DNA of 43,382 nt from Deinococcales bacterium (GCA_031414595.1 JANNVX010000022.1:1-43382), one strand, 5' to 3'. Numbered from the stretch's first letter, positions 10,328 through 40,747 are shown. Numbers and translations are program-made. Notes: a model not told the origin generated them from the sequence alone.

Positions 10328-10405
10328 TTCTTGACCCCTACAGCAGCACCTGCGGGCTTCTTGCTCATAAAACAGCACCTGTCGGGCTATTCGCGCTTGG
10401 GTCGC
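10328..10405 (+). mobile_element. Two nested copies of a 39-nt dispersed element (outer 10328-10357 plus 10397-10405; inner 10358-10396)
   Basis: ttcttgacccctacagcagcacctgcgggc[ttcttgctcataaaacagcacctgtcgggctattcgcgc]ttgggtcgc; 78 nt = 2 x 39. Mobility is inferred. Confidence 0.75.
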
Positions 10406-10416
10406 TCGGTGTCACC

Positions 10417-11178
10417 ATGTTAAAACTTGAGAATATCGAAGCGGGTTATAGTCGCCAGACGATTGTGCTGCGCGGAGTTTCTTTGGAAGTGCCGCAGGGT
10501 AAAATCGTCACCTTACTCGGTGCAAATGGCGCAGGTAAAAGCACTACCTTAAAAACAATTATGGGTTTAATAGATGATGAACCACGCAAAGGTAGTGTGG
10601 TTTTTGCTGGTCAGACCCTGACCCATAAGGACACCGAAAGTATTGCCAGAAGCGGTATTGCCCTTGTGCCAGAAGGTCGGGGGATGTTCAAGGACTTAAC
10701 CGTTTTTGAGAATTTAATGCTGGGTGCGTATCACCACAGCGCCACAGCCCAAAACACTTTGCAAGATGTCTTTAAGCGCTTTCCTCGGCTCGAGGAACGC
10801 AAAAGCCAACACGCGGGGACATTATCGGGTGGTGAACAACAAATGCTGGCGATTGGACGGGCTTTAATGAGTCGTCCTAAACTGATTTTACTCGACGAAC
10901 CGAGCCTTGGACTTGCACCAAAATTTGTCCAAGAAGTCTTTAATGCGATTGCCAGCATCAATGCCGAAGGGGTCAGCGTCATGCTGATTGAACAGAACGC
11001 CAAAAAAGCCCTCGAGATTGCCGATTATGCCTACGTTCTCGAGCATGGCAGAATTGTTCTCGAGGGAACTGGCACAGAGTTACGCGAGAATGAAAATGTC
11101 AAGGAATTGTATTTGGGCATGACCCATGTGCCGGATACCGGTGTTGGACGGTTTAGACGCAAGCGGCGCTGGAATTAG
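10417..11178 (+). CDS. ABC transporter ATP-binding protein (LivF-like)
   Basis: Start placed at ATG 10417; GANGAGKS, LSGGEQQM, LLDEPSLGLAP. Confidence 0.93.
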   Translation: MLKLENIEAGYSRQTIVLRGVSLEVPQGKIVTLLGANGAGKSTTLKTIMGLIDDEPRKGSVVFAGQTLTHKDTESIARSGIALVPEGRGMFKDLTVFENLMLGAYHHSATAQNTLQDVFKRFPRLEERKSQHAGTLSGGEQQMLAIGRALMSRPKLILLDEPSLGLAPKFVQEVFNAIASINAEGVSVMLIEQNAKKALEIADYAYVLEHGRIVLEGTGTELRENENVKELYLGMTHVPDTGVGRFRRKRRWN

Positions 11179-11490
11179 ATGAGACAGGGGTTTGATTTTT
11201 CTACCTCAGAAATTCTGAATTGGGAACTCGAGGCGATTAGTCAGTCCTTATTTGCCCAGCAACTCGAAATTAGTCCTCATGCGTATAAAGCGGCTCGAGA
11301 CGAACAAATTCCGTATCACGCAATTCTGGAAACGATTATGGTTGGTGTTGCAGTCAGTAAAGATTTGCCAGATAATCCGCTTAGTCGTCAGGCAGGCATT
11401 AACTTTGAGTATTTGTTTGTTGGGCGTTGGCTTCGTGCTAAAGTCAGTTGGGAAGATGAGTATTACGCCGTCACGATTCATACCCTTTAG
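11179..11490 (+). CDS. DUF4258-like putative toxin (RelE/BrnT-like fold)
   Basis: ISPHAYKAARDEQI...ILETIMVG...AVTIH pattern; paired with a small downstream ORF. Confidence 0.55.
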   Translation: MRQGFDFSTSEILNWELEAISQSLFAQQLEISPHAYKAARDEQIPYHAILETIMVGVAVSKDLPDNPLSRQAGINFEYLFVGRWLRAKVSWEDEYYAVTIHTL

Positions 11491-11498
11491 GAGTTTTT

Positions 11499-11714
11499 AT
11501 GACCTTAATTTCTAATGAAATAGCTAAAGATTATACATTCCACAGTAAGGGAGTAACGTTTATCGTTCATAATATTCCAACTCGGATTCGTACTTCTCGG
11601 AGTGGGGAAATTATTGAAACTTTTTCGATGCCAATTGCCTCGAGACTCGATCAATTGCTTGATGATGTTCTGGCAAAAGACCCTACACCACGCACGGTTG
11701 AACTCGAGTTTTAG
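11499..11714 (+). CDS. YgiT/MqsA-type zinc-finger-like partner protein lacking cysteines, putative antitoxin
   Basis: YTFHSKGVTFIVHNIP...SGE...FS..IASRLDQLL follows the YgiT-type pattern; RBS aggag. Confidence 0.5.
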   Translation: MTLISNEIAKDYTFHSKGVTFIVHNIPTRIRTSRSGEIIETFSMPIASRLDQLLDDVLAKDPTPRTVELEF

Positions 11715-11767
11715 AATACATACAAGCGCGGCTCTAATACGTTAGAATATAGCTCGGAGTGGGAAAA

Positions 11768-12442
11768 ATGGCTGAGACTGCACGGATTTTGGTAATTGAA
11801 GACGACCCTGATATTACTCGGGTCTTGCGTTTTGAACTCGAAGAAGCTGGTTTTGTGGTTCACACTGCCATAGACGGGGTGAGTGGCTTGACGGCTGCTC
11901 GAGAAGTGATGCCCGATTTGGTCATTTTGGATTTGGGCTTACCGGATTTTGATGGGGCTGAAATTGCCCGTCGGGTTCGTAAAACCTCAGATATTCCAAT
12001 TATTATTCTGACCGCTTTGGACGCAATTAGCACCAAGGTCTCCTTACTCGAGGGTGGCGCAGATGATTACCTAACCAAACCCTTTGAACCCGCCGAATTG
12101 GTGGCTCGAGTGCGGGTGCAACTTCGTAAACACCGTGGTGGCGACGCAATTGTGCTGGGCTTACTCGAGATTCATATGGAAAAACGCTTGGTGCGTTATA
12201 ACACCAAGGAAATCCGTTTATCGCCTAAAGAATTTGAATTGCTGGCATTCTTGGCGCGTCAACCGGGTCGGGTCTATGCCCGAGATGAAATCGAACGTGG
12301 CGTTTGGGGCAGTAACCTAGATGAAAACAGCAATGTTGTGGATGTGCATATGGCAAATATCCGTTCTAAGTTGCGTGACATGGATGGTTATGGTGTGATT
12401 CGTACCGTGCGCGGCATTGGCTATGCCTTAAAAGGGCAATAA
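11768..12442 (+). CDS. OmpR-family response regulator
   Basis: ILVIEDD, DLVILDLGLP, GADDYLTKPF, winged-helix IRTVRGIGY. Confidence 0.95.
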   Translation: MAETARILVIEDDPDITRVLRFELEEAGFVVHTAIDGVSGLTAAREVMPDLVILDLGLPDFDGAEIARRVRKTSDIPIIILTALDAISTKVSLLEGGADDYLTKPFEPAELVARVRVQLRKHRGGDAIVLGLLEIHMEKRLVRYNTKEIRLSPKEFELLAFLARQPGRVYARDEIERGVWGSNLDENSNVVDVHMANIRSKLRDMDGYGVIRTVRGIGYALKGQ

Positions 12443-12465
12443 TGGCTGTTGGTGATGATCTAGCC

Positions 12466-12486
12466 CTCAAAGCTCAAAGCTCATAA
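12466..12486. repeat. Heptamer tandem array (ctcaaag x2, ctcataa)
   Basis: Related to the reverse complement of the (r)gct(a/t)tg units at 4894-4921. Confidence 0.6.
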
Positions 12487-12493
12487 CTATCTT

Positions 12494-13783
12494 ATGAGTA
12501 TCCGTTGGCGCGTGGCTGTGGCAATGGCTGCCTTGTTGGTGTTGTTTGCCTTGACGCTAGGGGCAGTGGTCAGTGCCGTGGTCTTAAACACCTTAGAGAC
12601 CTATCAGCGTGGGTTGCTCGAGGCGGATGCAACCCAGTTACAGCAATTGTATGCCTCGAGTACACCGGGGGTTGTGCCAGCCCAAGAACTGCTTGGTGGG
12701 GCAAGGGTGGCTATTTTTAAGAGCGATGGTTCGGAGTTCCAGAACCTCAGTCAGCTTCAAATTCCAGTATCCGAAATTCAGGCAGTTGGTCAATCAAGGC
12801 GTTTTTGGCAATCTGAAAATTTAATTGTGCTGCTCGAGCCGTTGCCACGCCTGCCAAGTAAGCCGCAAGTGCTGGTGGTGGCTGCCAGTGCCGAATACAT
12901 CAATAATTTGGCGGCTCGAGTGCGGGTAGCCACGCTGATTGTCACGGGAATTTTGGTTTTGTTGGCGGTCTTGGGTGGGTATTTGCTGACCCAACTTGGT
13001 TTGCGCCCTTTAATCAGTGTGGCGCGGCAAGCGCAAGAATTAAGCGAAAGCAACCTTAAACCACTGGTCTACGCTGGCGCTCGAGATGAACTTGGGGTGC
13101 TGGTCGAGACCCTAAATCGTATGGTCTTGCGTTTGAATTCGGCTTTTGCCGCCCAAAAGACTTTTTTAGCCGAGGTTGCCCATGAACTGCGGACTCCTGT
13201 CACGGCGATAGAGGGTTATGTGCGTCAAGCCAAGCGTGATGCCTCGCCAGAAAGCAGTAAAACCCTTGATGACGCGACTCGAGTCGCCAAGAACATGACC
13301 CGTTTGGTGTCGGATTTATTGCAACTCTCGAGGGGCGAGGTTGTTCAAGAACTTGTGCCGCACGTGCTAGATGCCAAAGAATTACTTTACGGGGTTGCCA
13401 GTGAATTTAATATCAAAGCCGTAATTGTGCCGCCTCAAACCGTAGAACTGCTTGGCGACCCAGACCGTTTAGCCCAGTTGTTGCGTAACCTAACCTCAAA
13501 TGCAGTTCGGGCAGCTGGGATAGATAAGGTACAACTCGAGTTGACCTCTAACCAAAAGAATTTAATGTTTATCGTGACTGACCAAGGGGCTGGGATTGCC
13601 CCAGAATTGCTCCCTCGGATTTTTGAAAAATTTGTCAAAGGTGCGACTTCAAGAGGAGCAGGTTTAGGTTTAGCAATCGTGGCACAAATCGCCAAAGTCC
13701 ACGGTGGTGCCGTGGCTGTGAAATCCGAACTTGGAACAGGTACGGTCTTTACGATTACGCTGCCATTACTCGAGGAGGAATAA
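12494..13783 (+). CDS. Sensor histidine kinase (HAMP-HisKA-HATPase)
   Basis: Two transmembrane segments; AHELRTP H-box; NLTSNA, DQGAGI, GAGLGLAI. Confidence 0.95.
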   Translation: MSIRWRVAVAMAALLVLFALTLGAVVSAVVLNTLETYQRGLLEADATQLQQLYASSTPGVVPAQELLGGARVAIFKSDGSEFQNLSQLQIPVSEIQAVGQSRRFWQSENLIVLLEPLPRLPSKPQVLVVAASAEYINNLAARVRVATLIVTGILVLLAVLGGYLLTQLGLRPLISVARQAQELSESNLKPLVYAGARDELGVLVETLNRMVLRLNSAFAAQKTFLAEVAHELRTPVTAIEGYVRQAKRDASPESSKTLDDATRVAKNMTRLVSDLLQLSRGEVVQELVPHVLDAKELLYGVASEFNIKAVIVPPQTVELLGDPDRLAQLLRNLTSNAVRAAGIDKVQLELTSNQKNLMFIVTDQGAGIAPELLPRIFEKFVKGATSRGAGLGLAIVAQIAKVHGGAVAVKSELGTGTVFTITLPLLEEE

Positions 13784-13809
13784 GTGAAAAGCACAGGGTC
13801 AAAAAGCAC

Positions 13810-14598
13810 TCAAGAAATATCCATGCCCATAACGCTGTACCCACCGTCCACGTAAATCGTTTCGCCTGTGGTTGCGCCAGACATTGGACTGAACAAAAAT
13901 AAGCACATGTTGCCAACATCATCAAAAGAGGCATTCTTGCCCATGGCGCTCATTTTTGCGGTCTTCTCGAGCATCTGCGTAAAGCCCGGAATGCTTTTGG
14001 CAGCCACGGTTCGCATCGGTCCCGGGCTAACACAATTGACACGAATCCCAGCGCTGCCAAGGTCATAAGCAAGGTAGCGACTGGTGGCTTCTAAAGCGGC
14101 TTTGGCGACACCCATGACGTTGTATTTGGGAATAACTTTTTCCGAGGCATAATAAGTTAATGCCACAATACTCGAGCCGGCTGGCATGATTGGCGCGGCG
14201 CGTTGGGCAAGGGCAAGTAAGCTGTACGCACTCACATCCAAGGCGATTTTCCAGCCCTCACGCGAAGTTTGCACAAATGGGTTTTCTTGGGTTTCGCGGG
14301 GCGTAAAGGCAATGGCGTGCATTAAATAATCTATCCGCCCGAATTTGGCTTTGATTTTTTCAAACATCGAATCTATTTGCTCGTCATACATCACATCGCA
14401 AACCTCGAGCATTAAAACCTGTTCGCCGTATGGCGCGGTTAGTTTCTCGAGCGCGGGGATGTTGCGTTCGCCTTGGAACGAAAAAATGCACTTGCAACCA
14501 GCCGCCAATAATTTCTTGGCAGCCGCCCAGCCAAGGCTGTATTCGTTCTGCACACCAGCAATTAAAGCGATTTTATCGGATAAATCTATATTAACCAT
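13810..14598 (-). CDS. fabI: Enoyl-ACP reductase
   Basis: Start placed at ATG 14598; GVQNEYSLGW, YNVMGVAKAALE, SPGPMRT, TGETIYVDGG. Confidence 0.93.
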   Translation of the reverse strand: MVNIDLSDKIALIAGVQNEYSLGWAAAKKLLAAGCKCIFSFQGERNIPALEKLTAPYGEQVLMLEVCDVMYDEQIDSMFEKIKAKFGRIDYLMHAIAFTPRETQENPFVQTSREGWKIALDVSAYSLLALAQRAAPIMPAGSSIVALTYYASEKVIPKYNVMGVAKAALEATSRYLAYDLGSAGIRVNCVSPGPMRTVAAKSIPGFTQMLEKTAKMSAMGKNASFDDVGNMCLFLFSPMSGATTGETIYVDGGYSVMGMDIS

Positions 14599-14651
14599 GC
14601 CAAACGATAGCACGAGCGGGGGAATAGGCGCGAGCATTGTAGACTGGAGGC

Positions 14652-15791
14652 ATGAATTCCCTAAGCACCATTTACCAAGATTTACACCAACACCCAGAGC
14701 TTTGTTACCAAGAACACCGCACCGCCAGTGTCGTGGCTCGAGAACTCGAGGGCTTGGGCTTAAGCCCACAAACGGGGATTGCCGTCACGGGTGTGGTTGC
14801 CGATTTGGTGCGTGGCACAGGTAAAACCATTGCCTTACGAGCCGACATGGATGCCTTGCCGTTATCTGAACAAACAGACTTAGCATTCTCGAGTATCCAC
14901 ACTGGAAAAATGCACGCTTGCGGACATGATGCCCACACGACCATGCTGATTGGCGCAGCTAGAATTCTGGCAAAAAGCCAATTTAACGGCACGGTGCGTT
15001 TTGTCTTCCAACCCGCCGAGGAAAGTTGCGGCGCAGACCCAGACAAAAAATCTGGGGCAGAGCGAATGCTTGAGGCTGGTGTGTACGATGGCGTAGACGC
15101 AGCCGTGGCACTGCACAACGAACCGAGTATTGGTGTGGGAACAATTGGTTTTTGTGACGCTGAAATCATGGGGTGCTGCTTAGATTTTCGGATTGTCGTG
15201 CATGGGCGCTCGGCTCACGCTGGCGCAGAGCCAGAACGGGGTATTGATGCCATCGTGGTTGGCTCGAGTATTGTGCTGCAAGCCCAAACCTTGGTCAGCC
15301 GTAACGTTGCGCCACTCGATGCCGCCGCCGTTAGTTTTGGCATTATGCACGGTGGCACAGCCGAAAACATTGTTGCCGATGAACTTATTCTGCGTGGCAC
15401 AATCCGCACCATGCGCCTTAGTACCATAAAAAATTTACAAGCCCGTCTCGAGCAACTCGCCACTGGAATCGCCCAAGCCCACGGTGCAACCCTCGAGTTT
15501 AGTGCCACACCGATTTTGCCCAGTACGATCAATGACCAACAAATCAACGATTTACTTAAAGCAACGGCTCGAGAAGCTGGTATGACCACAGAAGAAATCC
15601 CACCCAGTCTAGGGGTGGAGGATTTTGCTTATGTTTCACAACGTATTCCCAGTGCTTACGCGATGATTGGTTCAAAAGTAGAGGGGTTTGAACAGTATGG
15701 ACTGCATCATCCAAAAGTACGCTGCCATGAGGATGTGTTACCGCTTGGTGCAGCATTATTGGCAAAAGTTGCCTTGAATTTCTTAAGGTAG
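14652..15791 (+). CDS. M20D family amidohydrolase
   Basis: LHQHPEL, ALRADMDALP, MHACGHDAH, FQPAEE, EDFAY, LHHPK. Confidence 0.93.
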   Translation: MNSLSTIYQDLHQHPELCYQEHRTASVVARELEGLGLSPQTGIAVTGVVADLVRGTGKTIALRADMDALPLSEQTDLAFSSIHTGKMHACGHDAHTTMLIGAARILAKSQFNGTVRFVFQPAEESCGADPDKKSGAERMLEAGVYDGVDAAVALHNEPSIGVGTIGFCDAEIMGCCLDFRIVVHGRSAHAGAEPERGIDAIVVGSSIVLQAQTLVSRNVAPLDAAAVSFGIMHGGTAENIVADELILRGTIRTMRLSTIKNLQARLEQLATGIAQAHGATLEFSATPILPSTINDQQINDLLKATAREAGMTTEEIPPSLGVEDFAYVSQRIPSAYAMIGSKVEGFEQYGLHHPKVRCHEDVLPLGAALLAKVALNFLR

Positions 15792-15861
15792 TAACTTAGG
15801 TTCGTTGCAAAAAAAACACCTAAACTCGAGAAGGTGTAAACTAAGAACGTTGAGGTGAATC

Positions 15862-16128
15862 ATGCAAAGTACACTTGAAAAAACAGAGAACACATGGCAA
15901 TTCCAAGATGCACAAGTGCAATTCGTCGAGTTAATTTCTAAAGCCTTGGCGGGAAAACCACAAACTGTAACAAACGGTGACCAATCTGTGGTGATTGTCT
16001 CGAGTGGGCAATTTACGGGACAAGACATCAGTGGTTGGGATTCTTTACGTCCTGGAATTCTACTCGATAATGACGAAGTAGACAGGCTTTTTGATCGTCA
16101 CTATAGTGAACATGAGGCAACAAAGTGA
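15862..16128 (+). CDS. Phd/YefM-family antitoxin
   Basis: WQFQDAQVQFVELISKA...PQTVT pattern; overlaps the PIN toxin start (GTGA). Confidence 0.8.
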   Translation: MQSTLEKTENTWQFQDAQVQFVELISKALAGKPQTVTNGDQSVVIVSSGQFTGQDISGWDSLRPGILLDNDEVDRLFDRHYSEHEATK

Positions 16129-16544
16129 GTTATTTACTGGATACCAATATCATCTCAGAACCCAGAAAACGCACCCCAAATCCACAAGTTGTTCATTGGC
16201 TTAAAACGACTCCAAAAACACAGCTTTTTATTTCAAGTATTACCATTGCAGAAATTAGTGCAGGTCAGCACCTTGCAAAGAACCCAGAAATACAAGAATC
16301 TTTGTTGGCTTGGCTCGAGTACCGGGTTAAACCACAATTTGCAAGTCAAACTTTAGCTGTCACCACAGAAATCGCTGAGGTTTTAGGTCGTAGTCTCAAA
16401 CACGCCCAAGAGCTTGAGCAATCAAATCGAGTATTTGACTTGATTATTGCAGCAACGGCTATTGTCCATGATTTGGTTGTCGTTACAAGGAACGTAAAGC
16501 ACTTTAAGCCTTTCCCGATAAAGGTTTTGAACCCTTTTATTTGA
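16125..16544 (+). CDS. vapC: VapC/PIN-domain toxin
   Basis: YLLDTNIISE, SITIAEI, DLIIAATA, VTRNVKHF. Confidence 0.92.
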   Translation: MSYLLDTNIISEPRKRTPNPQVVHWLKTTPKTQLFISSITIAEISAGQHLAKNPEIQESLLAWLEYRVKPQFASQTLAVTTEIAEVLGRSLKHAQELEQSNRVFDLIIAATAIVHDLVVVTRNVKHFKPFPIKVLNPFI

Positions 16545-16567
16545 TTTTGCACACTTTAACCAGACTT

Positions 16568-19817
<3,250 letters not shown>

Positions 19818-19840
19818 CCAGTCTGGAATCTCGAGGAACA

Positions 19841-19870
19841 AAAAAAGGACGCATTGATTTGCGCCCTTTT
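19841..19870. terminator. Bidirectional intrinsic terminator
   Basis: aaaaaaggacgca-ttgatt-tgcgccctttt between convergent genes. Confidence 0.7.
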
Positions 19871-19883
19871 CGCTTTATGTCTG

Positions 19884-21542: not shown

Positions 21543-21558
21543 GAGTCTCCTTCGGAGA

Positions 21559-21596: not shown

Positions 21597-21696
21597 TAGC
21601 TTGGATGATTGTGCTTGAAATTTGAGGATTTGTCATCGTCCTAAAGACCTATAAAAAGAGTATGCACTTTTTTTCTGACCACAGTCTGACAATAAA

Positions 21697-27226: not shown

Positions 27227-27859
27227 ATGCTCGTTCAAGATTGGATGACCCCTGCTCCCTTAACCATCGCCCCAAATACCGTAGTTCTCGAGGCGCTAAA
27301 GCTGCTGCAAAAACGAGGCTTCAGGCGTTTACCCGTGGTGGACGGCGCGACCTTGGTGGGTATTGTCACCGATAAGGACTTAAAAGATGCCATGCCGAGT
27401 AAAGCCACAACGCTTTCTGTCTGGGAAATGAATTACTTACTGGCAAAATTAACAGTACGTGAAGTCATGGCAAGCCCCGTTAAAACTTGCCGCGCTTCGG
27501 ACACGCTCGAGAGTGCTGCCCTGATTATGCAGTTCAGTAAAATTGCTGGTTTACCAGTGCTGGACAAAGCTGGCGCACTGGTTGGAATGCTGACCATCAC
27601 CGATGTCTTGGGGGCATTTACCCAAGTGCTTGGGCTAAAAGAAGGCGGGGTACGCCTAACCCTCGAGATGCCCGACGTACCCGGAAGCCTGATGACCGCC
27701 AGTCAAGCGATTCAGCCCGCCAATATCGTCAGTGTTGCCACGGCGGGACACAGCCAAGGCAACCGCAGATTTGTGATTCGCGTGGTCGGGGAAACCGCCC
27801 AAGACCTCGCAGAACGACTGACCAAGGCAGGAATCAATGTGCTGAATGTGCAAGGGTGA
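27227..27859 (+). CDS. CBS-domain plus ACT protein (AcuB-like)
   Basis: [31 protein letters not shown]. Confidence 0.9.
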
Positions 27860-27903
27860 AAGTTTCACCTTTTACCCTATGCTTTGCAGTGGTAACATCA
27901 GAT

Positions 27904-29055
27904 ATGCTCAAACCTCGAGTGCCGCTTTTTCCTGCTTACCAAATTCCAGCTTTTCGGTTCGTGGATATTTTTGCGGGTATTGGTGGGATGCGGCTTGGAT
28001 TTGAAGCGGCTGGTGGGCAATGTGTGTTTTCATCAGAATGGGATGTGCATTCACAAAAAACCTATTTTGCCAATCATGGGGATTTCCCAAAGGGCGATAT
28101 TACACGCATTCCCTCGAGTGACATCCCAAATTTTGACGTACTGCTGGCGGGGTTTCCTTGTCAGCCTTTTAGTAGTATTGGCTTGCGACAGGGGTTTTTA
28201 CATCAGACCCAAGGCACACTTTTTTATGAAATTGCCAGAATTTTAGCGGATAAAAAACCACTGGCTTTTCTGCTCGAGAATGTCGAAGGGTTGGTGACGC
28301 ATAATAACGGTCAGACGATGCAAATTATCCTCGAGACGCTGCGCGAACTTGGGTATGTGGTCACGTATCAAGTGCTGGATGCTTCTGAATTTGGTGTGCC
28401 TCAGAAACGCAAACGAATTTATATTGTTGGACATAGACTGGGGAATGCAAAGTTTAGTTTCCCAAAAGGCACAGGCTCAGATGTTTTTATTGGGCAGTTT
28501 ATTGAAACGGGTGTGGAGGGTTACGGGATTTCTGAACACCTGCAAAAAACCTATATTTTCAAAAAAGACGATGGTAAACCCGCGATTGTTAGCCCAGACT
28601 CGAGCATACACATCAAAACCCAAGTGGCTTCGTACCACAAAATTCAGCGTTTAACCGGAACGTTCGTGCGTGATGGTAAAACAGGTTTGCGTTTACTGAC
28701 TGAGAACGAATGCAAAGCGATTATGGGTTTCCCATCCCACTTTGTATTCCCTGTCTCGAGAACCCAGATGTATCGGCAAATTGGAAATTCGGTGGCTGTA
28801 CCCGTGATTAGTGCTATTGCAAGGGAAATTCAAAAACAAATTATTGGAAAACATATGAATAAAAAACAATATTCTCTCAGTCGGGTGGGTACAAGACCCA
28901 CCCCTACGAAAAACCCTTCCCCTAAAATAAATGTGGTTCGTGTAGGGGCGACCCTTCTTGACCCCAAAGCAGCACCTCACGGGCTTGGGTCGCTTGTGGT
29001 CGCCCTGTTTCAATTTGTTCAATGGTCTGTTCCAATTTCTGTGGTGTTTTTATGA
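27904..29055 (+). CDS. C5-cytosine DNA methyltransferase, M.MspI-like (predicted CCGG), with repeat-derived C-terminal tail
   Basis: FAGIGG, GFPCQPFS, ENVEGL, QKRKRIY, YRQIGNSV. The target-recognition region ISEHLQKTYIFKKDDGKP...YHKIQRLTGTFVRDG matches my recollection of M.MspI. GTG at 27856 is an alternative start. Confidence 0.9.
   Translation: MLKPRVPLFPAYQIPAFRFVDIFAGIGGMRLGFEAAGGQCVFSSEWDVHSQKTYFANHGDFPKGDITRIPSSDIPNFDVLLAGFPCQPFSSIGLRQGFLHQTQGTLFYEIARILADKKPLAFLLENVEGLVTHNNGQTMQIILETLRELGYVVTYQVLDASEFGVPQKRKRIYIVGHRLGNAKFSFPKGTGSDVFIGQFIETGVEGYGISEHLQKTYIFKKDDGKPAIVSPDSSIHIKTQVASYHKIQRLTGTFVRDGKTGLRLLTENECKAIMGFPSHFVFPVSRTQMYRQIGNSVAVPVISAIAREIQKQIIGKHMNKKQYSLSRVGTRPTPTKNPSPKINVVRVGATLLDPKAAPHGLGSLVVALFQFVQWSVPISVVFL
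28883..29005. repeat. Inverted doublet of GTAG-type REP hairpins (28883-28907 minus; 28942-29005 plus)
   Basis: gggtgggt-acaag-acccacccctac and gtaggggcgacc-c[39 nt]ttgt-ggtcgccc. Confidence 0.8.
28955..28993 (+). mobile_element. 39-nt dispersed element inserted in a REP loop
   Basis: ttcttgaccccaaagcagcacctcacgggcttgggtcgc; removing it restores the cttgt loop. Confidence 0.75.
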
Positions 29056-30263: not shown

Positions 30264-30379
30264 AATAAGGCAGCCTAAAACATTCCGAACTATTGAGACC
30301 TCAAACTACATTTTTACACGGGGCATCACACCCACGCTGTCGGGGCATCACACCCACACCAAAAACGTAAAATCGCTTT

Positions 30380-32412: not shown

Positions 32413-32517
32413 GGTAAAAAGGTGAAAAGTAGAAAAGGTAAAAAGGTTAAAGACAAAACATTTCTCAATACTTTAACCCTTTAACCTTTTTACCTTTTAA
32501 CCCTGCCCTTTACCCCT
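32412..32517. repeat. Inverted pair of short tandem arrays (ggtaaaaa-like, then tttaaccc-like)
   Basis: Same 8-mer families as 4922-4980; the two arms are mutually complementary. Confidence 0.85.
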
Positions 32518-32573
32518 ACATCTTGCGTTTAGAATTTCACTGACCTCGAGTACCAGTATGATAGAGTGTTTTT

Positions 32574-35500
32574 ATGGCTAGTCCTGAAGTTTCTCCTCGT
32601 CCTACGGTTAAACCGAAATCATCTCGGAAACGCAAGAAAACTGCGTCGGTCAGTTCTCCTGCTCGAGTGGCGGATGTTGAAGCGATTGGTTTAATTTTAT
32701 TTGGTGTGGGAATTATGGCGTTGTTCACAGTGCTTGCTCCGCCAAGTATCGCAGCTTTTGCGGCTTGGCAAAAGGCTTTACGGACATCCTTGGGTTGGGG
32801 AATGTATTATTTACCGCTTCCTTTTTTTGTCTTTGGGGCATTGCTACTCTTAAAGAAAAAAGTCGGTTTTGCGGCTCGAGTGCTGCTTGGTGTTTTGGTG
32901 ATGACAGTGGCGGGCTTGTTGGGAACAGCTTTTTTTGATGCAAAATTAGCAGGGAGTTTTGCTGTGGCGGTTATGACTCCAATGAAAGTGGTGATGCCAT
33001 TGCCGTTGGTGCTGATTGCTTTTTTGGGTAGTCTGGGCTTAGAAATCTCGCTTGGTTGGCAACGCACCCGAATTGCTCGAGCCGCCGCCCGAATTACCAG
33101 TTTAGGTATGCTTTCGGCTGCCAGTGCCACGGGTGCAGCCGCCAAAAGAGCCAAGGATGCCACCAATCGGCTGAGTCTGCAAATTGCAGCGCGGCGTGGG
33201 TTCGACAGCGCCAGCCGCGACATCACCGAATTACAGGATTTATACACGGGTTCAAGCGATTTATCGTCTTGGAAACGCGAAATTGAGCGCAGCAGCGATG
33301 CAATTAACGATGCTGACGAAGCGCGTTTAACCAGTTTACGTGACGAAGCCGGTTCGGTTCGTTCCAGAGTTTCGGCTTTTACCCAAGCTCGAGGTAAAGA
33401 CATCACTCAGAATTTGGCACTCGAGGATGTTGGCGCATTACTGTTAATAGATGAAGCCCGTAAGCAATTATTAAACCCTGTGTTAAGTAAAAACGCTGCC
33501 GCGATTGCGCTCGAGGATGTGCGTCGGGCGTTGCAACTCGAGACCAAAGCTGTCGAGGAAACCGAACGTAAATTGGTGCGTGAACGTGACAACGCCAGTC
33601 GCGCCTTAAGTGCCTCGCTTCGTCCAATGGATTTACGGCTTGAACTTGAACGACATGAAGAGCGTTTGGAGCGCAGTAAACAGTTGCGGGTCAAATGTGA
33701 GCATCTGTTGACACGGGTTGCGCCGTTAGCTGGATGGCATGAGTTTATCGCTCGGCTCGAGAACCGCCAAGAAGCCGATGTGCTTGGGTTTATCAAGAAT
33801 CTCGAGTCTAGTTTGCAAAATGGTTTAGCCGATGTGCTGCCAGAGTTACCGCACTGGACAAGTGACTTGGATACCTTAGAGCGCAATTTGGCTGTACAAG
33901 CAATTGCATTGGAGCAAGCCCAAGCTGTGGCGGTTGAACAAACCCAAATGGTCTGGGATGAACTCGATAAAAAAAGCCAAGCTGAGGTGGTCTACAACGC
34001 CACGTTTGAACTCGAGTATCCAAATGGGCAGTTTGTGTCTGGTGAGGATGCTCACCGAGTCATTCGTGGTTTAGAGACGGTTGACATTGGACTCGAGGAC
34101 GAAGACGATGCTGCCCCGTGGCAAGAATCCACATGGGTATCGCCTGCCGAACGTGCTGCCCAGAAAATGGAAGAAGCACGAATTAAAAAAGCCAGTGCCT
34201 TACAACAAAACACTGACCGAAATTTTCAGGATAATAACGGTTTCGCGCCCGGAATCGCTGATAGTGGCGTGGGTGAACGTCTGCGTTTTGACCCAAGTAA
34301 AGCCGTTGGCGCAATTCCAATTCAAGTTCCTGGTACGGCTTTTCTCGACCCAATGCAGGTTTCGGGGATTGACATGGTGGCTTTTGACCGTGCGGCAAGG
34401 GAACGCGGTGCGATTCTCGATGAGTGCTTCAAGAACTTTGGGGTCAATGCCAAAGTTTTGACCTTCGCCAGAGGTCCAACCGTCACGCGCTTTGAAGTTG
34501 AACCTGCGCCCGGCGAAAAAATTGCTCGAATTGCCAGTTTACAAAACGATATTGCTCGAGTCTTATCTGTGGGTGGGATTCGTTTAGAAGCCCCTGTTCC
34601 TGGCAAAAGCGTGGTTGGTATCGAAGTGCCAAATATCGAGCGCGAACCAATTACCTTTAGGCAAGGTATCGAAAGTAAAAGTTTTCAGAGTGGTAAACAA
34701 AAACTGCCGCTTATGCTCGGTAAAAGTATAGACGGTGAAATGGTGGTGGATGACCTTGTGCGAATGCCGCACTTATTGATTGCGGGCAGCACAGGCTCTG
34801 GTAAATCGGTCTGTGTCAACACCCTGATTATGAGCTTGCTGTTTCGGTATTTACCGACCCAAATGCGTTTTGTGATGATAGACCCAAAAATGGTTGAACT
34901 TACGCCTTACGACGGCATTCCGCACTTGGTACGCCCTGTGGTTACTAATCCATCTGATGCCGCAGGGGTGTTGCTTGGGTGTGTGGCGCACATGGAACGA
35001 CGTTACAAAATGATGTCTGAGGTGCAAGCCAAGAATTTAGAACAGTACAACGAAAAAGCCCGAGCCGTCGGCGACCCTGAATTGCCATTTCTAGTGATTA
35101 TCATTGACGAACTTGCTGACTTGATGATTACTTCGCCCAAAGAAGTCGAAAGCAGCATTATGCGTTTAGCGCAAATGGCTCGAGCCACGGGGATGCACCT
35201 AGTATTAGCCACCCAACGCCCAAGTGCCGATGTGCTGACCGGCTTAATTAAAGTCAATGTGCCAGCCCGAATTGCCTTTGCGGTGTCTTCGGGTATTGAC
35301 AGTCGCACGATTTTGGACAGCACCGGCGCAGAACGTTTAACGGGTAACGGCGACATGCTTTTTTACCGCCCCGGACTAAGCAAAGCCACTCGTCTTCAAG
35401 GACCGTATATTTCCGAAGCAGAACTTGCCCGAATTACCGAATTCTTGCGTAAACAACACTATGAAGACGATTTTGGCGAGACGTATGGCTCGGACTTTGA

Positions 35501-35777
35501 TGGTGTGGTTGAAGCTGCCAGTTCTGGCAAAGTTGACTCGAGCATGATTGACTTTGGCGACCCTTTAATCAAAAAAGCTGCCGAAGTGGTGGTCGAAGAA
35601 GGCTACGCGGCTGTCTCGAGATTGCAACGCCGTTTAAGTGTTGGTCATGCTCGAGGTGGTAAATTGATTGATGCGCTTGAATCTATGGGTATTGTTGGTG
35701 GCTATAAAGGAAGTAAATCCAGAGAAGTCTTAATCACCGCCGATCAGTTACCCGAGTATTTTGGTAAGCCGAATTAA
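32574..35777 (+). CDS. ftsK: DNA translocase FtsK
   Basis: N-terminal transmembrane segments, coiled-coil linker, [38 protein letters not shown], gamma domain ([17 protein letters not shown]). Confidence 0.96.
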
Positions 35778-35865
35778 AGTTAAAATCGCAAGGCTAACCT
35801 ACAGGAAAATCATAGTGAAAGAGATAGCCAGAATTTATGTAGACTACCAATTAAATGAATTAGGG

Positions 35866-36342
35866 ATGTATTTTTTTGGATTCTTAATTTATTTTATCTA
35901 TTGTTCCATTTCTGCTTCAGTCTACTTAATATCACTGTCTTTTGCAGCCAGCTTTTTGGGTTTAAGAACTCGACAATTACACATTGGCAGAATAGCCTTG
36001 ATAAAAGTCCGAGAGAAGTGGGTACTTTCACTGAAAAATCAGCCGTTTCGTATTGCTGGTAGTGTTCGATTTGAAAAAAGTGAATTGGGTTTGAGCCTTT
36101 GGAAAAAGTTATTTTTTGGTTTTATTGGCGTATCCTCTTCCATTATTTTAATTACCCTTTTGATTTTACGACCATTTTTGTTGCCAATAGTTAATTCAAA
36201 TCACAATTTTATTACTATGCTGAGATTTCTGAATATGTTTCTTCCAATAATGGAAATTGTTTTTTTGACTTACAATTTAATGCCGAAAAAGTTTGGATTC
36301 AATTATTTCACATTGGGCTATATCGTTTTCCATAAAAGTTAG
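35866..36342 (+). CDS. AT-rich membrane protein resembling a degenerate site-2 protease (M50) without HExxH
   Basis: Start placed at ATG 35866; hydrophobic helices; LHIG...AGSVRF...WKKLFFGFIG...YNLMP. Confidence 0.45.
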   Translation: MYFFGFLIYFIYCSISASVYLISLSFAASFLGLRTRQLHIGRIALIKVREKWVLSLKNQPFRIAGSVRFEKSELGLSLWKKLFFGFIGVSSSIILITLLILRPFLLPIVNSNHNFITMLRFLNMFLPIMEIVFLTYNLMPKKFGFNYFTLGYIVFHKS

Positions 36343-36407
36343 ACTATTTGACAAGAAAGTTACACGAGTTCTTGATGGGGTTTTTGCAAATCTATTTTGG
36401 TATTCAG

Positions 36408-36920
36408 ATGTCTAAATTACAGTTGTCAATTATCATTATGGGAGTCTCGGGTTGCGGTAAAACCACGCTTGGGCAAAAATTAGCTGCTCGGCTCGAGTAT
36501 CCGTTTTTTGATGCCGATGATTTTCACGACACCACAAACAAAGAAAAAATGGCGGCTGGTATTCCTTTAACCGACGCTGACCGAGCCACTTGGCTGGAGA
36601 CGCTGGCAAATCTTCTGGAGACATATTCTCCGTGTGTGCTGGCATGTTCGGCATTAAAAGAACAGTACCGTTTACAGTTGGCTAGAAACTCAAAACTGCA
36701 TTGGGTCTATTTGCGTGGTAGCAAGGAGTTAATTGCGGCACGGCTGCAAACTCGAGAACACTTTTTTAATCCCAAGCTGCTGGCTTCGCAGTTTGAAATT
36801 CTTGAAGAACCTCAAAATGCGATTGTGGTTTCGATTGAACATTCCCTCGAGACAATCGTCGAAATGGTGCTTGGTGTATTGTCCAATTCGGTTTTACAAT
36901 CAGGTTTACCCGTAGAATAA
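36408..36920 (+). CDS. gntK: Gluconokinase
   Basis: MGVSGCGKTT, DADDFH, PLTDADR, ACSALK, SQFEILEEP. Confidence 0.93.
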   Translation: MSKLQLSIIIMGVSGCGKTTLGQKLAARLEYPFFDADDFHDTTNKEKMAAGIPLTDADRATWLETLANLLETYSPCVLACSALKEQYRLQLARNSKLHWVYLRGSKELIAARLQTREHFFNPKLLASQFEILEEPQNAIVVSIEHSLETIVEMVLGVLSNSVLQSGLPVE

Positions 36921-36939
36921 ACCATGAAAAGGAAAAATC

Positions 36940-38397
36940 ATGACCACACCAACGGCTGACATCGGCATTATCGGACTCGCTGTAATGGGCGAGAATTTGG
37001 TTCTGAACATGGCAAGCAAAGGTTTTACGGTTGCGGCATTTAATCGCACCATAGAAAAAGTAACGGCGTTTAAGGCAGCCCGAGGCTCGAGTGACAAAAT
37101 TCTTGGAGCGGGTAGTTTAGCCGAGTTTGTTGGGTCGTTAAAACATCCGCGTCGGGTGATGCTGATGGTCAAGGCGGGCGCAGCCGTGGATGCAACCATC
37201 GCCCAACTCGTACCGATGCTCAAAGCTGGGGATATTATTGTAGACGGTGGCAATAGTCATTTTGATGACACCAACCGACGGGTCAAGGAACTCGAGACGC
37301 ATGGGATTTTATTTGTCGGTTCGGGGGTGTCTGGCGGTGAAGAAGGCGCACTAAAAGGACCCAGTATCATGCCGGGCGGGTCAGTTGCAGCTTGGGAGCA
37401 TATCAAACCAATTTTTCAGGGCATTGCGGCTCGAGCCACAGACAACGCGCCATGTTGTGAATGGCTGGGCAAGGCTGGGGCTGGGCATTTTGTAAAAATG
37501 GTACATAACGGCATCGAGTACGGCGATATGCAAATGATTGCTGAAGCCTACAGTTTACTGCGATACGCTGGTCTGGGGAATTCGGAAATTGCTGATGTTT
37601 TTTCGCAGTGGAACAAAGGCGAATTGGAAAGTTACTTGGTCGAAATTACCGCCGATATTCTGCGTAAAAAAGATGATGCCACTGGGCTTGACCTTGTGGA
37701 CGTAATTTTAGACACGGCTGGGCAAAAAGGCACTGGTAAATGGACTTCTACAGTTGCACTTGATGTCGGCAGCCCCGCCAATACGATTGCCGAAGCGGTT
37801 TTTGCACGCTGCTTATCTGCCTTAAAAGAAGAACGGGTTCATGCCTCGAGTATTCTCAAAGCTCCACCAAGCGCCCCGATTACCGACCAAGCCGCCTTTA
37901 TCGAAGATGTACGCCAAGCGCTGTTTGCCAGTAAAATCTGTTCTTATGCCCAAGGTTTCCAGTTAATGAAAATGGTGGCAGCCGAACAACAATGGAATCT
38001 CGAGTATGGCACAATTGCGGCTGTTTGGCGCGGCGGTTGTATTATTCGGGCTGGATTCTTAGAGAACATCAGGCAGGCTTACGGCACAGACTCGAGCCTA
38101 GCCAATTTATTACTGGATTCGTACTTTGCACAGGTTATAGAAAATCATCAAGCCGCATGGCGGCGAGTCATTTGCAGTGCCACGATGAACGGCATCTGGA
38201 TACCTGCCTTCTCGAGTGCCTTGGCGTACTTTGACGGCTACCGCACTGCCCGTCTAAGCACCAATATCCTCCAAGCCCAACGGGATTACTTTGGGGCGCA
38301 TACTTATGAGCGCACCGATAAGGCTCGAGGTGAGTTTTTTCATACCAATTGGACAGGTGAGGGCGGGACAACCAGTGCCAGCACCTACAGCGTTTAG
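36940..38397 (+). CDS. gnd: 6-phosphogluconate dehydrogenase (decarboxylating, NADP+)
   Basis: GLAVMGENL, VSGGEEGA, KMVHNGIEYGDMQ, QAQRDYFGAHTY. Confidence 0.97.
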   Translation: MTTPTADIGIIGLAVMGENLVLNMASKGFTVAAFNRTIEKVTAFKAARGSSDKILGAGSLAEFVGSLKHPRRVMLMVKAGAAVDATIAQLVPMLKAGDIIVDGGNSHFDDTNRRVKELETHGILFVGSGVSGGEEGALKGPSIMPGGSVAAWEHIKPIFQGIAARATDNAPCCEWLGKAGAGHFVKMVHNGIEYGDMQMIAEAYSLLRYAGLGNSEIADVFSQWNKGELESYLVEITADILRKKDDATGLDLVDVILDTAGQKGTGKWTSTVALDVGSPANTIAEAVFARCLSALKEERVHASSILKAPPSAPITDQAAFIEDVRQALFASKICSYAQGFQLMKMVAAEQQWNLEYGTIAAVWRGGCIIRAGFLENIRQAYGTDSSLANLLLDSYFAQVIENHQAAWRRVICSATMNGIWIPAFSSALAYFDGYRTARLSTNILQAQRDYFGAHTYERTDKARGEFFHTNWTGEGGTTSASTYSV

Positions 38398-38456
38398 AAA
38401 AAACGTCAACTCTTACGGACTCCCTCGAAAGAGCGGGGTCAAAGGTCAAGGAAAAT

Positions 38457-39929
38457 ATGCCTAATTCCCTCGAGCCAACTGCCATAATTATTTTTGGTGC
38501 TTCTGGCGATTTAACCAAACGCAAACTTTTACCAGCACTGTATCAATTGGTCTTGGATGGTCATGCCCCAGAGCGCTTTAGCATCATTGGTGTGGCTCGG
38601 ACAGTCATGTCTCGAGACGAGTATCAAGCGATTGCTAAAGAAGCCCTTGAACGCGCCTACAAGCAACCACTCGAGGAAGAGGCATGGCAGCGTTTTGCAG
38701 CCATGCTCGATTACAAACCACTTGATTTTAATAATGTGCAGGATTTTATTGCCCTGCGGCTTGAACTCGAGCAAGCTGGGTTCTTAAATTGGTTGTTTTA
38801 TTGTTCTGTGCCGCCAAGTGTCTTTCCGACCATTACCCAACAACTTGGTGAGTCTGGTTTGAGTTCTGAAACCTTGGGCTATACCCGTATTATTGTCGAA
38901 AAACCCTTTGGGACAAACCTCGAGACTGCTAAAATCTTAAATCTCGAGTTACACAAGGTCTTTACCGAAAGCCAAATTTACCGCATAGACCATTTTCTGG
39001 GCAAAGAAACAGTCCAGAACATTCTAGCATTGCGTTTTGCCAACACGATTTTTGAACCGCTTTGGAATCGTAATTATGTAGATCATATTCAGATTACGGT
39101 TGCCGAGGACTTGGGCATGGAAGGACGCGGCGGATTTTACGAAGAAGCTGGAATTCTGCGTGACATGGTGCAGAATCACATGATGCAACTGCTTTGTTTT
39201 ATTGCCCTCGAGCCTCCCGTTGGTCCTTGGCAGGGCAGCATTCATCCATTAGAAGCTGGGGCGCTGCGCGACGAAAAAGCCAAAGTGATTCGGGCTTTGC
39301 GTCCGATTACTGCCGAATTTCTCGAGCATTCGATTGTGCTGGGGCAGTACAGCGCTGGACAAATTGGTTCAGAACCGGCGGTAAGCTATCTTGAAGAAGC
39401 CAAAGTTAGCCCAGACTCGAAAACCGCCACCTATGCAGCCTTAAAAGTCGAAATAGACAATTGGCGTTGGGCGGGTGTGCCTTTTTACCTGCGGAGTGGT
39501 AAGCGTTTGCCAGTCAAAAACACCGAAATTGCGATTGTCTTTAAGCGTCCGCCACTTGATTTATTCCCACAACCCAGCCAGCCGAACATGCTCAGGATTA
39601 ACATTCAACCACACGATGGGGTGAACCTGAGTTTTGATGCCAAAATGCCGGGTTTAACCGCCGATTTACGCCCCGTCAACATGGATTTTAATTACTCAGA
39701 TTTTGGCGCAAGTGGACCCAGTGCTTATGAGCGCCTGATACTCGACGCGATGCACGGCGATGCTTCTCTGTTCCCTCGCGGCGATGAAGTCGAAGCGTCT
39801 TGGGCATGGATTGCGCCTCTGCTCGAGTGCCAAGTGCCTTTGCATTCATATGCGGCGGGGACTTGGGGTCCTGAGCAAGCTGATGGGTTACTGGCTGCCA
39901 ATCAAACTTGGCATAAACTAAAATCATGA
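38457..39929 (+). CDS. zwf: Glucose-6-phosphate dehydrogenase
   Basis: FGASGDLTKRKLLP, VEKPFG, YRIDHFLGKE, RDMVQNH. Confidence 0.97.
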   Translation: MPNSLEPTAIIIFGASGDLTKRKLLPALYQLVLDGHAPERFSIIGVARTVMSRDEYQAIAKEALERAYKQPLEEEAWQRFAAMLDYKPLDFNNVQDFIALRLELEQAGFLNWLFYCSVPPSVFPTITQQLGESGLSSETLGYTRIIVEKPFGTNLETAKILNLELHKVFTESQIYRIDHFLGKETVQNILALRFANTIFEPLWNRNYVDHIQITVAEDLGMEGRGGFYEEAGILRDMVQNHMMQLLCFIALEPPVGPWQGSIHPLEAGALRDEKAKVIRALRPITAEFLEHSIVLGQYSAGQIGSEPAVSYLEEAKVSPDSKTATYAALKVEIDNWRWAGVPFYLRSGKRLPVKNTEIAIVFKRPPLDLFPQPSQPNMLRINIQPHDGVNLSFDAKMPGLTADLRPVNMDFNYSDFGASGPSAYERLILDAMHGDASLFPRGDEVEASWAWIAPLLECQVPLHSYAAGTWGPEQADGLLAANQTWHKLKS

Positions 39930-40747
39930 AGCAACTTATTTTTGAAAACCCCGAAAGCCTAGCGAAGGCTGCCGCACAATCTTTTGGGGAATTGGCACAA
40001 GAGGCGATAACTTCTCGAGGGCGGTTCAATGTGGCATTGGCAGGTGGCAGCACACCCAAAGTGATTTACGAAAAACTGGCAATACTGCCCTTACCTTGGG
40101 CGCAAATTCATTTTTTTTGGGGCGATGAACGGCTTGTACCAATCACTGACTCGAGGTCAAATTACCGCATGGTATTTGAGGCGCTACTCGAGAAAATACA
40201 GATTCCACCTGAAAATGTGCATCGGGTTCAAACTAGGCTCGAGACTGAAATGGAAAATCATGTTCTCTTACAGGGAGACCACTTCTTGACCACAACTACA
40301 GCACCTTCGGGCTTGGGTCGCAAGGGTCTCCCCTACAAAAAACCATTTGCCGTAGGGGAGGGGCTTGTCCCCTCCCTGCCCTTTACGGATTCTGATTTTG
40401 AACACATCCTCAAGTCGTACATTACCGAACTCGAGGGTCTGCAATTTGACTTAATACACCTTGGACTCGGCACGGATGGACACATGGCTTCACTTTTCCC
40501 CGCCACCAACCTCGAGATGAATGCACTTGCCCAGCTGACTTTCCCTACGGCTGGACTCGAGCCTCAAGTGCAGCGCATCAGCCTGAGCTTACAAACCATT
40601 AACGCTGCTCGAGTTAAACAATTTTTTGTGACTGGCACAAGTAAAAAACCCATTCTCGAGCAGATTAGAAACGGTGTAGATTATCCTGCTGCTCAAGTTC
40701 AAAATGCCCAATGGTGGTTAGACCAAGCTGCCAGCACAGACGAGTAG
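39926..40747 (+). CDS. pgl: 6-phosphogluconolactonase with in-frame repeat-derived insertion
   Basis: ALAGGSTP, WGDERLVP, SNY, LGLGTDGHMASLFP; extra segment between ENVHRV and FDLIHLG. Confidence 0.92.
   Translation: MKQLIFENPESLAKAAAQSFGELAQEAITSRGRFNVALAGGSTPKVIYEKLAILPLPWAQIHFFWGDERLVPITDSRSNYRMVFEALLEKIQIPPENVHRVQTRLETEMENHVLLQGDHFLTTTTAPSGLGRKGLPYKKPFAVGEGLVPSLPFTDSDFEHILKSYITELEGLQFDLIHLGLGTDGHMASLFPATNLEMNALAQLTFPTAGLEPQVQRISLSLQTINAARVKQFFVTGTSKKPILEQIRNGVDYPAAQVQNAQWWLDQAASTDE
40271..40378. repeat. Inverted doublet of GTAG-type REP hairpins inside pgl (40271-40336 minus; 40352-40378 plus)
   Basis: cagggagacc-ac[39 nt]aag-ggtctcccctac and gtaggggagggg-cttgt-cccctccctg. Confidence 0.8.
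40283..40321 (+). mobile_element. 39-nt dispersed element inserted in a REP loop
   Basis: ttcttgaccacaactacagcaccttcgggcttgggtcgc; removing it restores the acaag loop. Confidence 0.75.

Follow-up and report, generated by a model that had tools for sequence, protein, structure and literature searches.

A dispersed hairpin element of about 39 nucleotides that lies in other repeats and in copies of itself in an uncultured Deinococcales family

A stretch of 43,382 nt from a Deinococcales bacterium (GCA_031414595.1 JANNVX010000022.1:1-43382; hereafter the window) carries four copies of one short sequence, two of them in the loops of repetitive extragenic palindrome (REP) hairpins and one inside another copy. 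Is so small a sequence mobile, and if so, what moves it? The window is contig C22 of genome G000, an assembly of 4.49 Mb in 120 contigs with 47% G+C. G000 and the genomes with which we compared it are all metagenome bins, present in samples of freshwater sediment and biofilm, and all copy numbers given for the element are lower bounds because repeats break the assembly of such bins. A preliminary description of the window had proposed a non-autonomous mobile element of exactly 39 nt that inserts into other repeats and into itself. We located all four of its copies exactly, and its core pattern matched four times in the window and not once in any of 100 dinucleotide-preserving shuffles. The copies and their host sites are the following (^ marks an insertion point here and below).

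10297..10327, + strand: pyrimidine-rich tract of heptamer-like CTTTTGC / CTTTCGC units in the livG-livF spacer, host of the nested pair
10328..10357, + strand: 5' part of the outer copy, TTCTTGACC... to ...CGGGC; the inner copy splits it after CGGGC, and excision restores the host
10358..10396, + strand: 39-nt inner copy, a member of the TCTTGCTC... subfamily, sitting in the outer copy's loop
10397..10405, + strand: 3' part of the outer copy, TTGGGTCGC
28942..29005, + strand: host REP of the 28955 copy, GTAG followed by GGGCGACC, the loop and GGTCGCCC; with its insertion it reads GTAG-GGGCGACC-C(copy)TTGT-GGTCGCCC
28955..28993, + strand: copy of 39 nt in the loop C^TTGT of this GTAG REP, on the same strand as GTAG
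40273..40336, - strand: host REP of the 40283 copy, GGGAGACC ... GGTCTCCC CTAC on the + strand, inside the open reading frame (ORF) 39926-40747
40283..40321, + strand: copy of 39 nt in the loop AC^AAG of this oppositely oriented REP, in frame in a 6-phosphogluconolactonase-like ORF

As had been described, excising 28955-28993 and 40283-40321 restores REP hairpins of the GTAG type with loops CTTGT and ACAAG, excising the inner copy restores a full outer copy, and the two REP insertions are opposite in orientation relative to the REP. In a DNA fold of 28930-29015, the element hairpin is nested within the REP hairpin. The TCTTGCTC subfamily, to which the inner copy belongs, occupies at least 20 other sites in G000.

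Filled and empty orthologous sites

We compared 12 loci that hold the element, 3 in the window and 9 on contigs C98, C109 and C73, with five to seven genomes of the same genus. Precise empty sites exist for 8 of the 12 loci, where a collinear orthologue keeps its host sequence intact but has no element; the remaining four had no collinear match or a rearranged spacer. The eight filled sites and the genomes in which they are empty are listed here.

10328-10405, nested pair (78 nt): absent in G005 and G007, which keep a bare heptamer tract
28955: the REP loop CTTGT is uninterrupted in G004 and G006, which lack the element; a copy is present in G005
40283: absent in G004, with the REP present
C98:90462: absent in G007
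C98:88031: absent in G001 and G003
C109:29505: absent in G004
C109:33545: absent in G001
C73:7224: absent in G005

None of the eight filled/empty pairs showed a target duplication, in agreement with the preliminary description. At the 10328 locus, the heptamer tract of G001 holds a single copy from a different subfamily, and in G005, whose flanks are 93-97% identical to those of G000 at the compared loci, the 40283 copy itself contains an extra 39-nt copy nested after GCACC. Within G000, identical copies stand in unrelated flanks, and uninterrupted paralogues are known for three other host repeats. Outgroup sequences at 10328, 28955 and C98:88031 make gain the simpler reading, gain and precise loss being indistinguishable at any one site. 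The empty sites and the nesting support the proposal of a non-autonomous mobile element that inserts into other repeats and into itself, and we regard it as very probable that the family is both mobile and non-autonomous. At about 39 nt, it is one of the smallest mobile DNAs seen. Logan contigs of four sequencing runs contained no 39-nt or 78-nt skip; these contigs stop at repeats and are hence silent on polymorphism within a population. One of them (runs X1/X3) covers the 28955 copy without difference. No RNA run is among the sequencing runs listed as holding these sequences.

The same comparisons bear on two candidate junction schemes. IS91-like insertion 3' of CTTG was rejected, as the filled and empty alleles at 28955 permit breaks only before, or at most two bases into, CTTGT. 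A target duplication of TT or CTT was ruled out by the 40283 site, with its flanks AC and AAG.

The livG-livF spacer that hosts the nested pair is variable in its own right. Its heptamer-like CTTTTGC/CTTTCGC units, at 10297-10327 and in the orthologous spacers, are very different between species, and in G003 the spacer has a long array of the GGTGAAAA/GGTCAAA type instead.

Anatomy, length and targets of the family

The full regular expression of the preliminary description finds 30 copies genome-wide in G000, and anchoring the search less strictly, on just the two invariant words GCACC and CGGGC, uncovers a much larger and more varied family. We took a census of complete units by finding them, cutting them out and searching again, which gave 119 complete copies in total (106 + 11 + 2 at three successive levels of nesting). 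With an nhmmer profile made from them we obtained 132 hits at E<=0.01, of which 18 are additional variants or fragments. The expectation that a whole-genome search would reveal further copies was therefore borne out, with a family of this size in place of the original four. Nothing in Rfam came near any gathering score for the element.

The copies share a common plan: T(N)TCTTG, the 5' arm of a stem, an A-rich spacer, GCACCT, 1-2 nt, CGGGC, the 3' arm of the stem and CGC. As a hairpin, this corresponds to a 5' tail T(N)TCTT, a 6-bp stem, a 17-21-nt loop with the invariant GCACCT and CGGGC, and a 3' tail GC. The G of TCTTG forms a pair with the antepenultimate base of the element, and covariation is seen in the five pairs that follow. 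Across 156 distinct sequences from G000 and related loci, stem pairs 1-5 were paired in 0.74 of cells, whereas 1000 shuffles of the 3' arms gave 0.52 on average and 0.565 at most. Fully complementary versions of the stem include GACCAT/ATGGTC, GACCCT/AGGGTC, GACCAC/GTGGTC, GATTCT/AGAATC, GATTCC/GGAATC, GATCCC/GGGATC, GAACCC/GGGTTC and GATGCC/GGCATC; the TCTTGCTC subfamily has two constant mid-stem mismatches. The pairing of GACC with GGTC at the ends of three window copies, noted previously, is present and is wider than had been claimed, since it belongs to a terminal stem of 6 bp of which many covarying forms exist.

A length of exactly 39 nt did not hold for the family. Counted from the base before TCTTG, the 119 copies measure 36 nt (3 copies), 37 nt (22), 38 nt (47), 39 nt (42), 40 nt (4) and 41 nt (1). 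That base is not T in 42 of the 119, and the base preceding it is then T in 37; in two such cases, orthologous empty sites place the leading T within the insertion. With the leading T included, the 101 copies with distinct flanks measure 36 nt (3), 37 nt (15), 38 nt (20), 39 nt (56), 40 nt (5) and 41 nt (2). At C109:29505, the net insertion relative to the orthologous empty site is 38 nt. The suggestion that two internal spacers vary reciprocally and so conserve total length finds weak support: in the subfamily on which it was based, 15 of 21 copies total 39 nt and 6 do not, where about 11 of 21 would be expected from the spacer counts, by arithmetic, if the spacers were independent.

We next consider copies inside genes. 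We called a copy "deep in an ORF" when no fewer than 40 codons separate it from each end of a stop-to-stop ORF that is itself 150 codons or longer; 19 of the 119 copies are of this kind. The length is a multiple of three in 17 of these 19 (15 of 39 nt and 2 of 36 nt), as against 52 of the 100 copies elsewhere (Fisher p = 0.002). Because the in-frame bias is confined to copies inside genes, it points to selection after insertion: frame-keeping looks like selection on insertions in genes and not like a property of the mechanism. Together with the 36-41-nt range, this argues against the earlier view that a length constraint is intrinsic to the element. The 40283 copy and two REPs are translated in frame within the 273-codon, 6-phosphogluconolactonase-like ORF 39926-40747 (+ strand), whose Pfam Glucosamine_iso match falls into two stretches, split around the inserts. 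The orthologue in G005 is open despite its second nested copy, and in G003 and G006 the entire inserted segment is absent from the orthologue. Sister species carry an older, decayed version of the insert or none.

The REP at 28942-29005 lies in the open tail of another gene, the C-5 cytosine DNA methylase ORF 27856-29055 (+ strand). Two REPs and the 28955 copy lie in the ~70 codons by which this ORF extends past its Pfam domain, and the end of the ORF overlaps the start of the next gene.

Insertion shows a marked preference at the junction. The base at -1 is C in 77 of the 101 distinct-flank copies, as against 24% expected; that every copy follows a C is true of the four window copies, and does not extend to the whole family. 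The element ends in C by definition of the unit. Bases +1 and +2 are T in 64 and 60 of the 101 copies, respectively, and C^T is found at the left junction in 77, at the right junction in 64 and at both in 48. By our own rough sorting of hosts, 28 copies lie between complementary arms of at least 7 bp, with a GTAG/CTAC tag in 25 of those; ~17 lie in the 3' arm of one REP type (the GGACAGAC... host), which multiplied as a composite; 15 are inserted in a complete copy of the element itself, following GCACC, following CGGGC or in its 5' arm; heptamer-like tracts rich in pyrimidines hold ~10; and the remainder are divided between unique DNA and two other repeat families. Relative to the REP, copies are found in either orientation. 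In G010, of genus g4, units are strung head to tail in arrays of 2-5, with one T at each joint and a period of 39 nt, and the members of these arrays are unlike in sequence, even in subfamily. There was no orientation bias relative to flanking genes (24 co-directional on one strand, 29 on the other).

Two further structured repeat families of G000 share the site ACTCCT(T/G)^TTAGTCG, at which they are struck by different element subfamilies; uninterrupted paralogues exist. One family is ~190 bp long with ATACCAA...TTGGTAT ends, and the other combines a long GTATCTCACGCT...AGCGTGAGATAC hairpin with a terminator-like hairpin. Their loci are C11:13550-14150, C55:8880-9480 and C86:1-500; and C101:8450-9050, C106:61850-62450 and C67:59330-59930.

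Distribution and candidate enzymes

The core pattern occurred in all 18 genomes of the Deinococcales family to which the window belongs, with 1 to 316 matches each; the genomes counted as high-copy have 74-316. The 22 genomes of four other families of the order gave 0-1 matches, as did a reversed control pattern. Within an even sample of 301 genomes of the phylum, all 9 family members were multi-copy for the element, as were both representatives of a single genus from another family (G197, 11 matches; G253, 40 matches), and the counts elsewhere were 0-2. In a scan of one genome per species, 42 of the 80 matches listed were in metagenome-assembled genomes labelled 'Deinococcales/Deinococcota bacterium', often several per genome; the other 38 of those listed were single hits in scattered taxa, as chance predicts. 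Viral contigs gave 23 single matches, and the 9 that fitted the full pattern had poor stems and were chance-like. The element is thus confined to one uncultured Deinococcales family and one further genus, and stands at chance level elsewhere. We found no such element in Deinococcota in the literature on small dispersed repeats, REP/RAYT insertion and Deinococcota REP-associated tyrosine transposases (RAYTs).

The copies in G197 and G253 (genus g36, another family of the order) belong to divergent subfamilies, TCTTGGCCC... and TCTTGGAGC..., which end in CCGC and are nested in one another. In G221, of the genus Deinococcus, two adjacent look-alike units lie 37 nt apart at C55:11155-11219.

We found no longer master element. 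A search for halves with matching stems enclosing 60-6000 bp gave three hits, all of them nested or separate complete copies; no pair of halves encloses cargo, indicating that the element is not a fixed part of a longer insertion sequence (IS) or of the end of a miniature inverted-repeat transposable element (MITE), in line with the preliminary description. No IS200-type transposase is present in G000, and the Y2 (IS91-type) transposase profile PF04986 gave 0 matches there, its control also having matched in no genome. Two G000 proteins have 'REP-associated tyrosine transposase' as their best NCBIfam match, with 62.9 and 53 bits.

G000:C98:106767-107468, - strand: RAYT-like gene with HUH and Tyr present, flanked by the methylase and specificity genes in a type I restriction-modification operon
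G000:C109:4189-4776, - strand: second RAYT-like paralogue, with Phe-His where the first has Tyr-Tyr at the catalytic position (alignment by eye)

The first of these genes carries an in-frame GTAG REP in a low-complexity insert. Among the 18 family genomes, GTAG REPs are found in 17 and RAYT-like genes in 16, and every genome with a high copy number of the element has both GTAG REPs and RAYT-like or IS200-like genes. In G002, which has neither REPs nor a Y1 gene, the element pattern matches once; G253 has 34 REPs beside its 40 matches, and its RAYT-like gene is flanked by REPs. No RAYT-like gene in G000 or at the relatives' loci is flanked by paired copies, the 8 IS200-type loci examined hold no copy, and none of the IS200-type and RAYT-like loci is bounded by the element.

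We favour, with a probability of roughly 0.4, the explanation that these are miniature hairpin elements moved by an HUH single-strand nuclease; the single-stranded intermediate and the identity of the enzyme are what we infer. A trans-acting HUH nuclease of the RAYT or IS200 kind would cut the element strand after C on each side, and the excised piece would be joined, in a peel-and-paste manner, into another single strand cut after C. Copies are added with no duplication of the target, in most cases immediately 3' of a C. The preferred targets can be single-stranded, namely GTAG REP loops and arms, the loop or end of another copy, and short pyrimidine-rich tandem tracts, and insertion at the end of another copy yields head-to-tail arrays with a 39-nt period. 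E. coli TnpA-REP cuts single strands between a 5' C and a 3' T and can carry out strand transfer (PMC3479197). The preliminary description had suggested an HUH/RAYT nuclease, and at somewhat below even odds we keep an enzyme of this type as the leading candidate: the C on the 5' side of both breaks and the co-distribution with GTAG REPs and RAYT-like genes speak for it, whereas the lack of any RAYT-like gene with paired flanking copies and the presence of the element in G197, in which no Y1 gene was found, speak against it.

Several further observations weigh against movement by an HUH nuclease. Both NCBIfam scores in G000 are below the curated cut-off of 80, and the C109 paralogue, judged from its sequence, seems to lack the catalytic tyrosine and may be inactive. 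No element copy lies within ~1.5-3 kb of either G000 RAYT-like gene; in relatives, 4 of 12 RAYT-like loci hold one copy each, and in the three of those with readable known-host flanks the copy sits in a REP-like host. G197, which is 95% complete, has its 11 matches without a Y1_Tnp match, a RAYT-like match or a GTAG REP, although three of these copies have common flanks and may be passengers of a larger repeat. G013 has 71 REP matches and RAYT-like genes with only 8 element matches, G019 and G037 have REPs and RAYT-like genes with no element, and all of the co-distribution rests on few related lineages. The element is without the GTAG tag that TnpA-REP needs (PMC3479197). The +1 base is not T in 37 of 101 copies, and there was no strand bias relative to local GC skew (37 of 80 copies positive). 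The hairpin is weak in thermodynamic folding (z -0.6 to -1.0), and the TCTTGCTC subfamily is not predicted to form the stem; folding alone gives no support for the hairpin, and the structural claim therefore rests on covariation.

Second in our ranking, and in our judgement unlikely, is movement by some other DNA-level process, either an unrecognised nuclease or recombinase that acts on folded hairpins or template switching at hairpins during replication or repair, guided by short CTT/TT microhomology of target and element ends. Consistent with such a process, no candidate enzyme co-occurs perfectly with the element, the junctions show slight variation, with both 38-nt and 39-nt net insertions and with either T or T+N at the 5' end, and insertions are also found in stem arms and heptamer tracts. 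Moreover, targets share CTT/TT with the 5' end of the element, as in the REP loop CTTGT and in the frequent T at +1 and +2. By contrast, boundaries that are near-constant over more than 100 copies and at least 6 genera would be hard to obtain by undirected template switching; the conserved loop words and the covarying stem imply recognition by a dedicated factor; and the strong C at -1 resembles nuclease specificity.

The two remaining possibilities, ranked last, are both improbable. In RNA-mediated spread, a structured small transcript would be copied into DNA at nicks by target-primed reverse transcription. The heterogeneous 5' end (T, TG, TA or TC before TCTTG) and fixed 3' CGC form the asymmetry expected of cDNA insertion, and G000 does encode a reverse transcriptase (620 aa; C82:66547-69242, locus L168 446-3141). 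This protein, the only intact reverse transcriptase of G000, is encoded directly downstream of a membrane CARF protein and matches CRISPR-associated reverse transcriptase models, however, and there is no RVT_1 match in G010 (98 pattern matches, 91% complete), G197, G013 or G002, which disfavours the reverse transcriptase that had been suggested as the enzyme. The lack of orientation bias to flanking genes, the lack of a poly-A-like or primer-binding feature in the element and the lack of a related RNA in Rfam also argue against a transcript. Passive spread, in which the element would be a loop variant carried only as a passenger of REPs or other repeats and multiplied by slippage or unequal exchange in arrays, could account for the ~17 copies at the same position of the GGACAGAC... 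REP type, whose similar outer flanks indicate composite multiplication, for the three G197 copies with common flanks, and for the enlargement of tandem arrays by slippage, but it is largely refuted by hosts present without the element at orthologous unique loci and runs counter to the unrelatedness of the hosts (several REP types, two other repeat families, heptamer tracts, coding sequence and the element itself), to the different subfamilies at the same host site and to arrays whose members are unlike in sequence and subfamily.

Returning to movement by an HUH nuclease, a more specific and more doubtful version of it casts the element as a 'hyperparasite', 39 nt long, of the REP-RAYT system; it would then be the smallest DNA transposon whose recent activity can be demonstrated. 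A single hairpin with a C-sided cleavage site at either end, it would borrow a REP-associated HUH nuclease or a hairpin-specific enzyme and be pasted into hairpin loops where the enzyme sits, its own loop included, and its modal length of 13 codons would aid survival in genes.

Relation to known small repeats, and implications

Elhai and co-workers in 2008 reportedly described small dispersed repeats (SDRs) of 21-27 nt with hairpin structure, nesting and an association with heptamer repeats. The element resembles SDR4-6 of Nostocaceae as a very small dispersed repeat with precise insertion into other repeats and each other, its own insertions being in REP loops, two other repeat families, heptamer tracts and the element itself. 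It differs from the reported size of SDRs in its length of 36-41 nt. It also differs in being found in Deinococcales, whereas SDRs, called 'short mobile elements' in PMC5861425, are there reported only in Nostocaceae. SDR5 lies between the 3rd and 4th base of the HIP1 palindrome (PMC4390886), and the mechanism of SDR spread was still described as unexplained in the papers cited here.

With REPs, REPINs and their RAYTs, the element shares a short, high-copy, hairpin-forming and non-coding nature, vertical persistence in a lineage and stem covariation; as a dispersed imperfect palindrome in 119 complete copies with a 6-bp covarying stem, it answers to part of the description of a REP. It further resembles REPs in its in-frame copies in genes, intragenic REPs having been described in frame in genes (PMC3733652), in its co-occurrence with GTAG REPs and RAYT-like genes, and perhaps in the C 5' of the break, which recalls the C^T cleavage by E. 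coli TnpA-REP (PMC3479197). By contrast, PMC3733652 and PMC3479197 define REPs by a conserved unpaired GTAG or CGTC tetranucleotide at the hairpin foot, and neither word is present on either strand of the element consensus, which has TCTT before the stem G as its 5' foot and GC as its 3' tail. The element has a 6-bp stem and a conserved 17-21-nt loop, whereas REPs have a long stem and a small loop; it occurs singly or in head-to-tail arrays, whereas REPs often form inverted doublets; and it was not found to flank RAYT-like genes and uses REPs as targets. We conclude that it resembles REPs and cyanobacterial SDRs and fits neither definition, for SDRs as judged from their reported size and taxon.

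Members of the IS200/IS605 family and their miniature derivatives are alike in a right end that finishes in a similar short word, in hairpin dependence and in targets able to be single-stranded, and may be alike in the lack of target duplication and in insertion 3' of a short preferred sequence. They differ in having distinct left and right subterminal hairpins where the element has one hairpin in less than 41 nt; in addition, the target word of the element comes down to approximately one strongly preferred base (C), no replication-strand bias was detected, and no cognate IS with the ends of the element was found. Unlike a MITE, the element has ends, TTCTTG and GTCGC, that are not inverted repeats, and it shows no duplication at empty/filled pairs. 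Rickettsia palindromic elements, which are roughly 100-150 bp long, are longer and belong to a different phylum. They are palindromic selfish repeats tolerated in frame in protein-coding genes (PMC3733652), which recalls the 17 of 19 copies deep in long ORFs that keep the frame, and they are not known for self-nesting or REP-loop targeting.

A separate observation concerns the genome as a whole. By far the commonest hexamer in G000 is CTCGAG. It occurs 23,235 times across the 4.49 Mb, at 5.2 per kb, 242 of these occurrences falling in the window, and is three times as frequent as the hexamer ranked next, and GGGCCC (0), TGCGCA (2), GGCGCC (3), AGGCCT (4), GTGCAC (6) and CGGCCG (10) are near-absent. 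CTCGAG looks like a highly iterated palindrome comparable to cyanobacterial HIP1, combined with strong restriction-site avoidance.

The element has practical consequences for the genomes that carry it. It breaks metagenome assemblies, as where Logan contigs stop at the nested pair, and the 13-codon segments that it inserts in real genes such as pgl can mislead annotation. The spread of the smallest bacterial repeats, REPs and SDRs, has so far been argued from indirect evidence. The family described here offers a clean natural data set, in which hundreds of copies of a ~39-nt element, its hairpin defined and its junctions following a simple rule, are spread over ~20 related genomes, with filled and empty alleles between species a few percent apart and with nesting and tandem arrays as a record of target choice. 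Such a data set makes specific enzyme hypotheses testable with oligonucleotides. If the element were indeed a hyperparasite of the REP-RAYT system, it would be a natural minimal substrate for learning how REP- and SDR-like repeats move.

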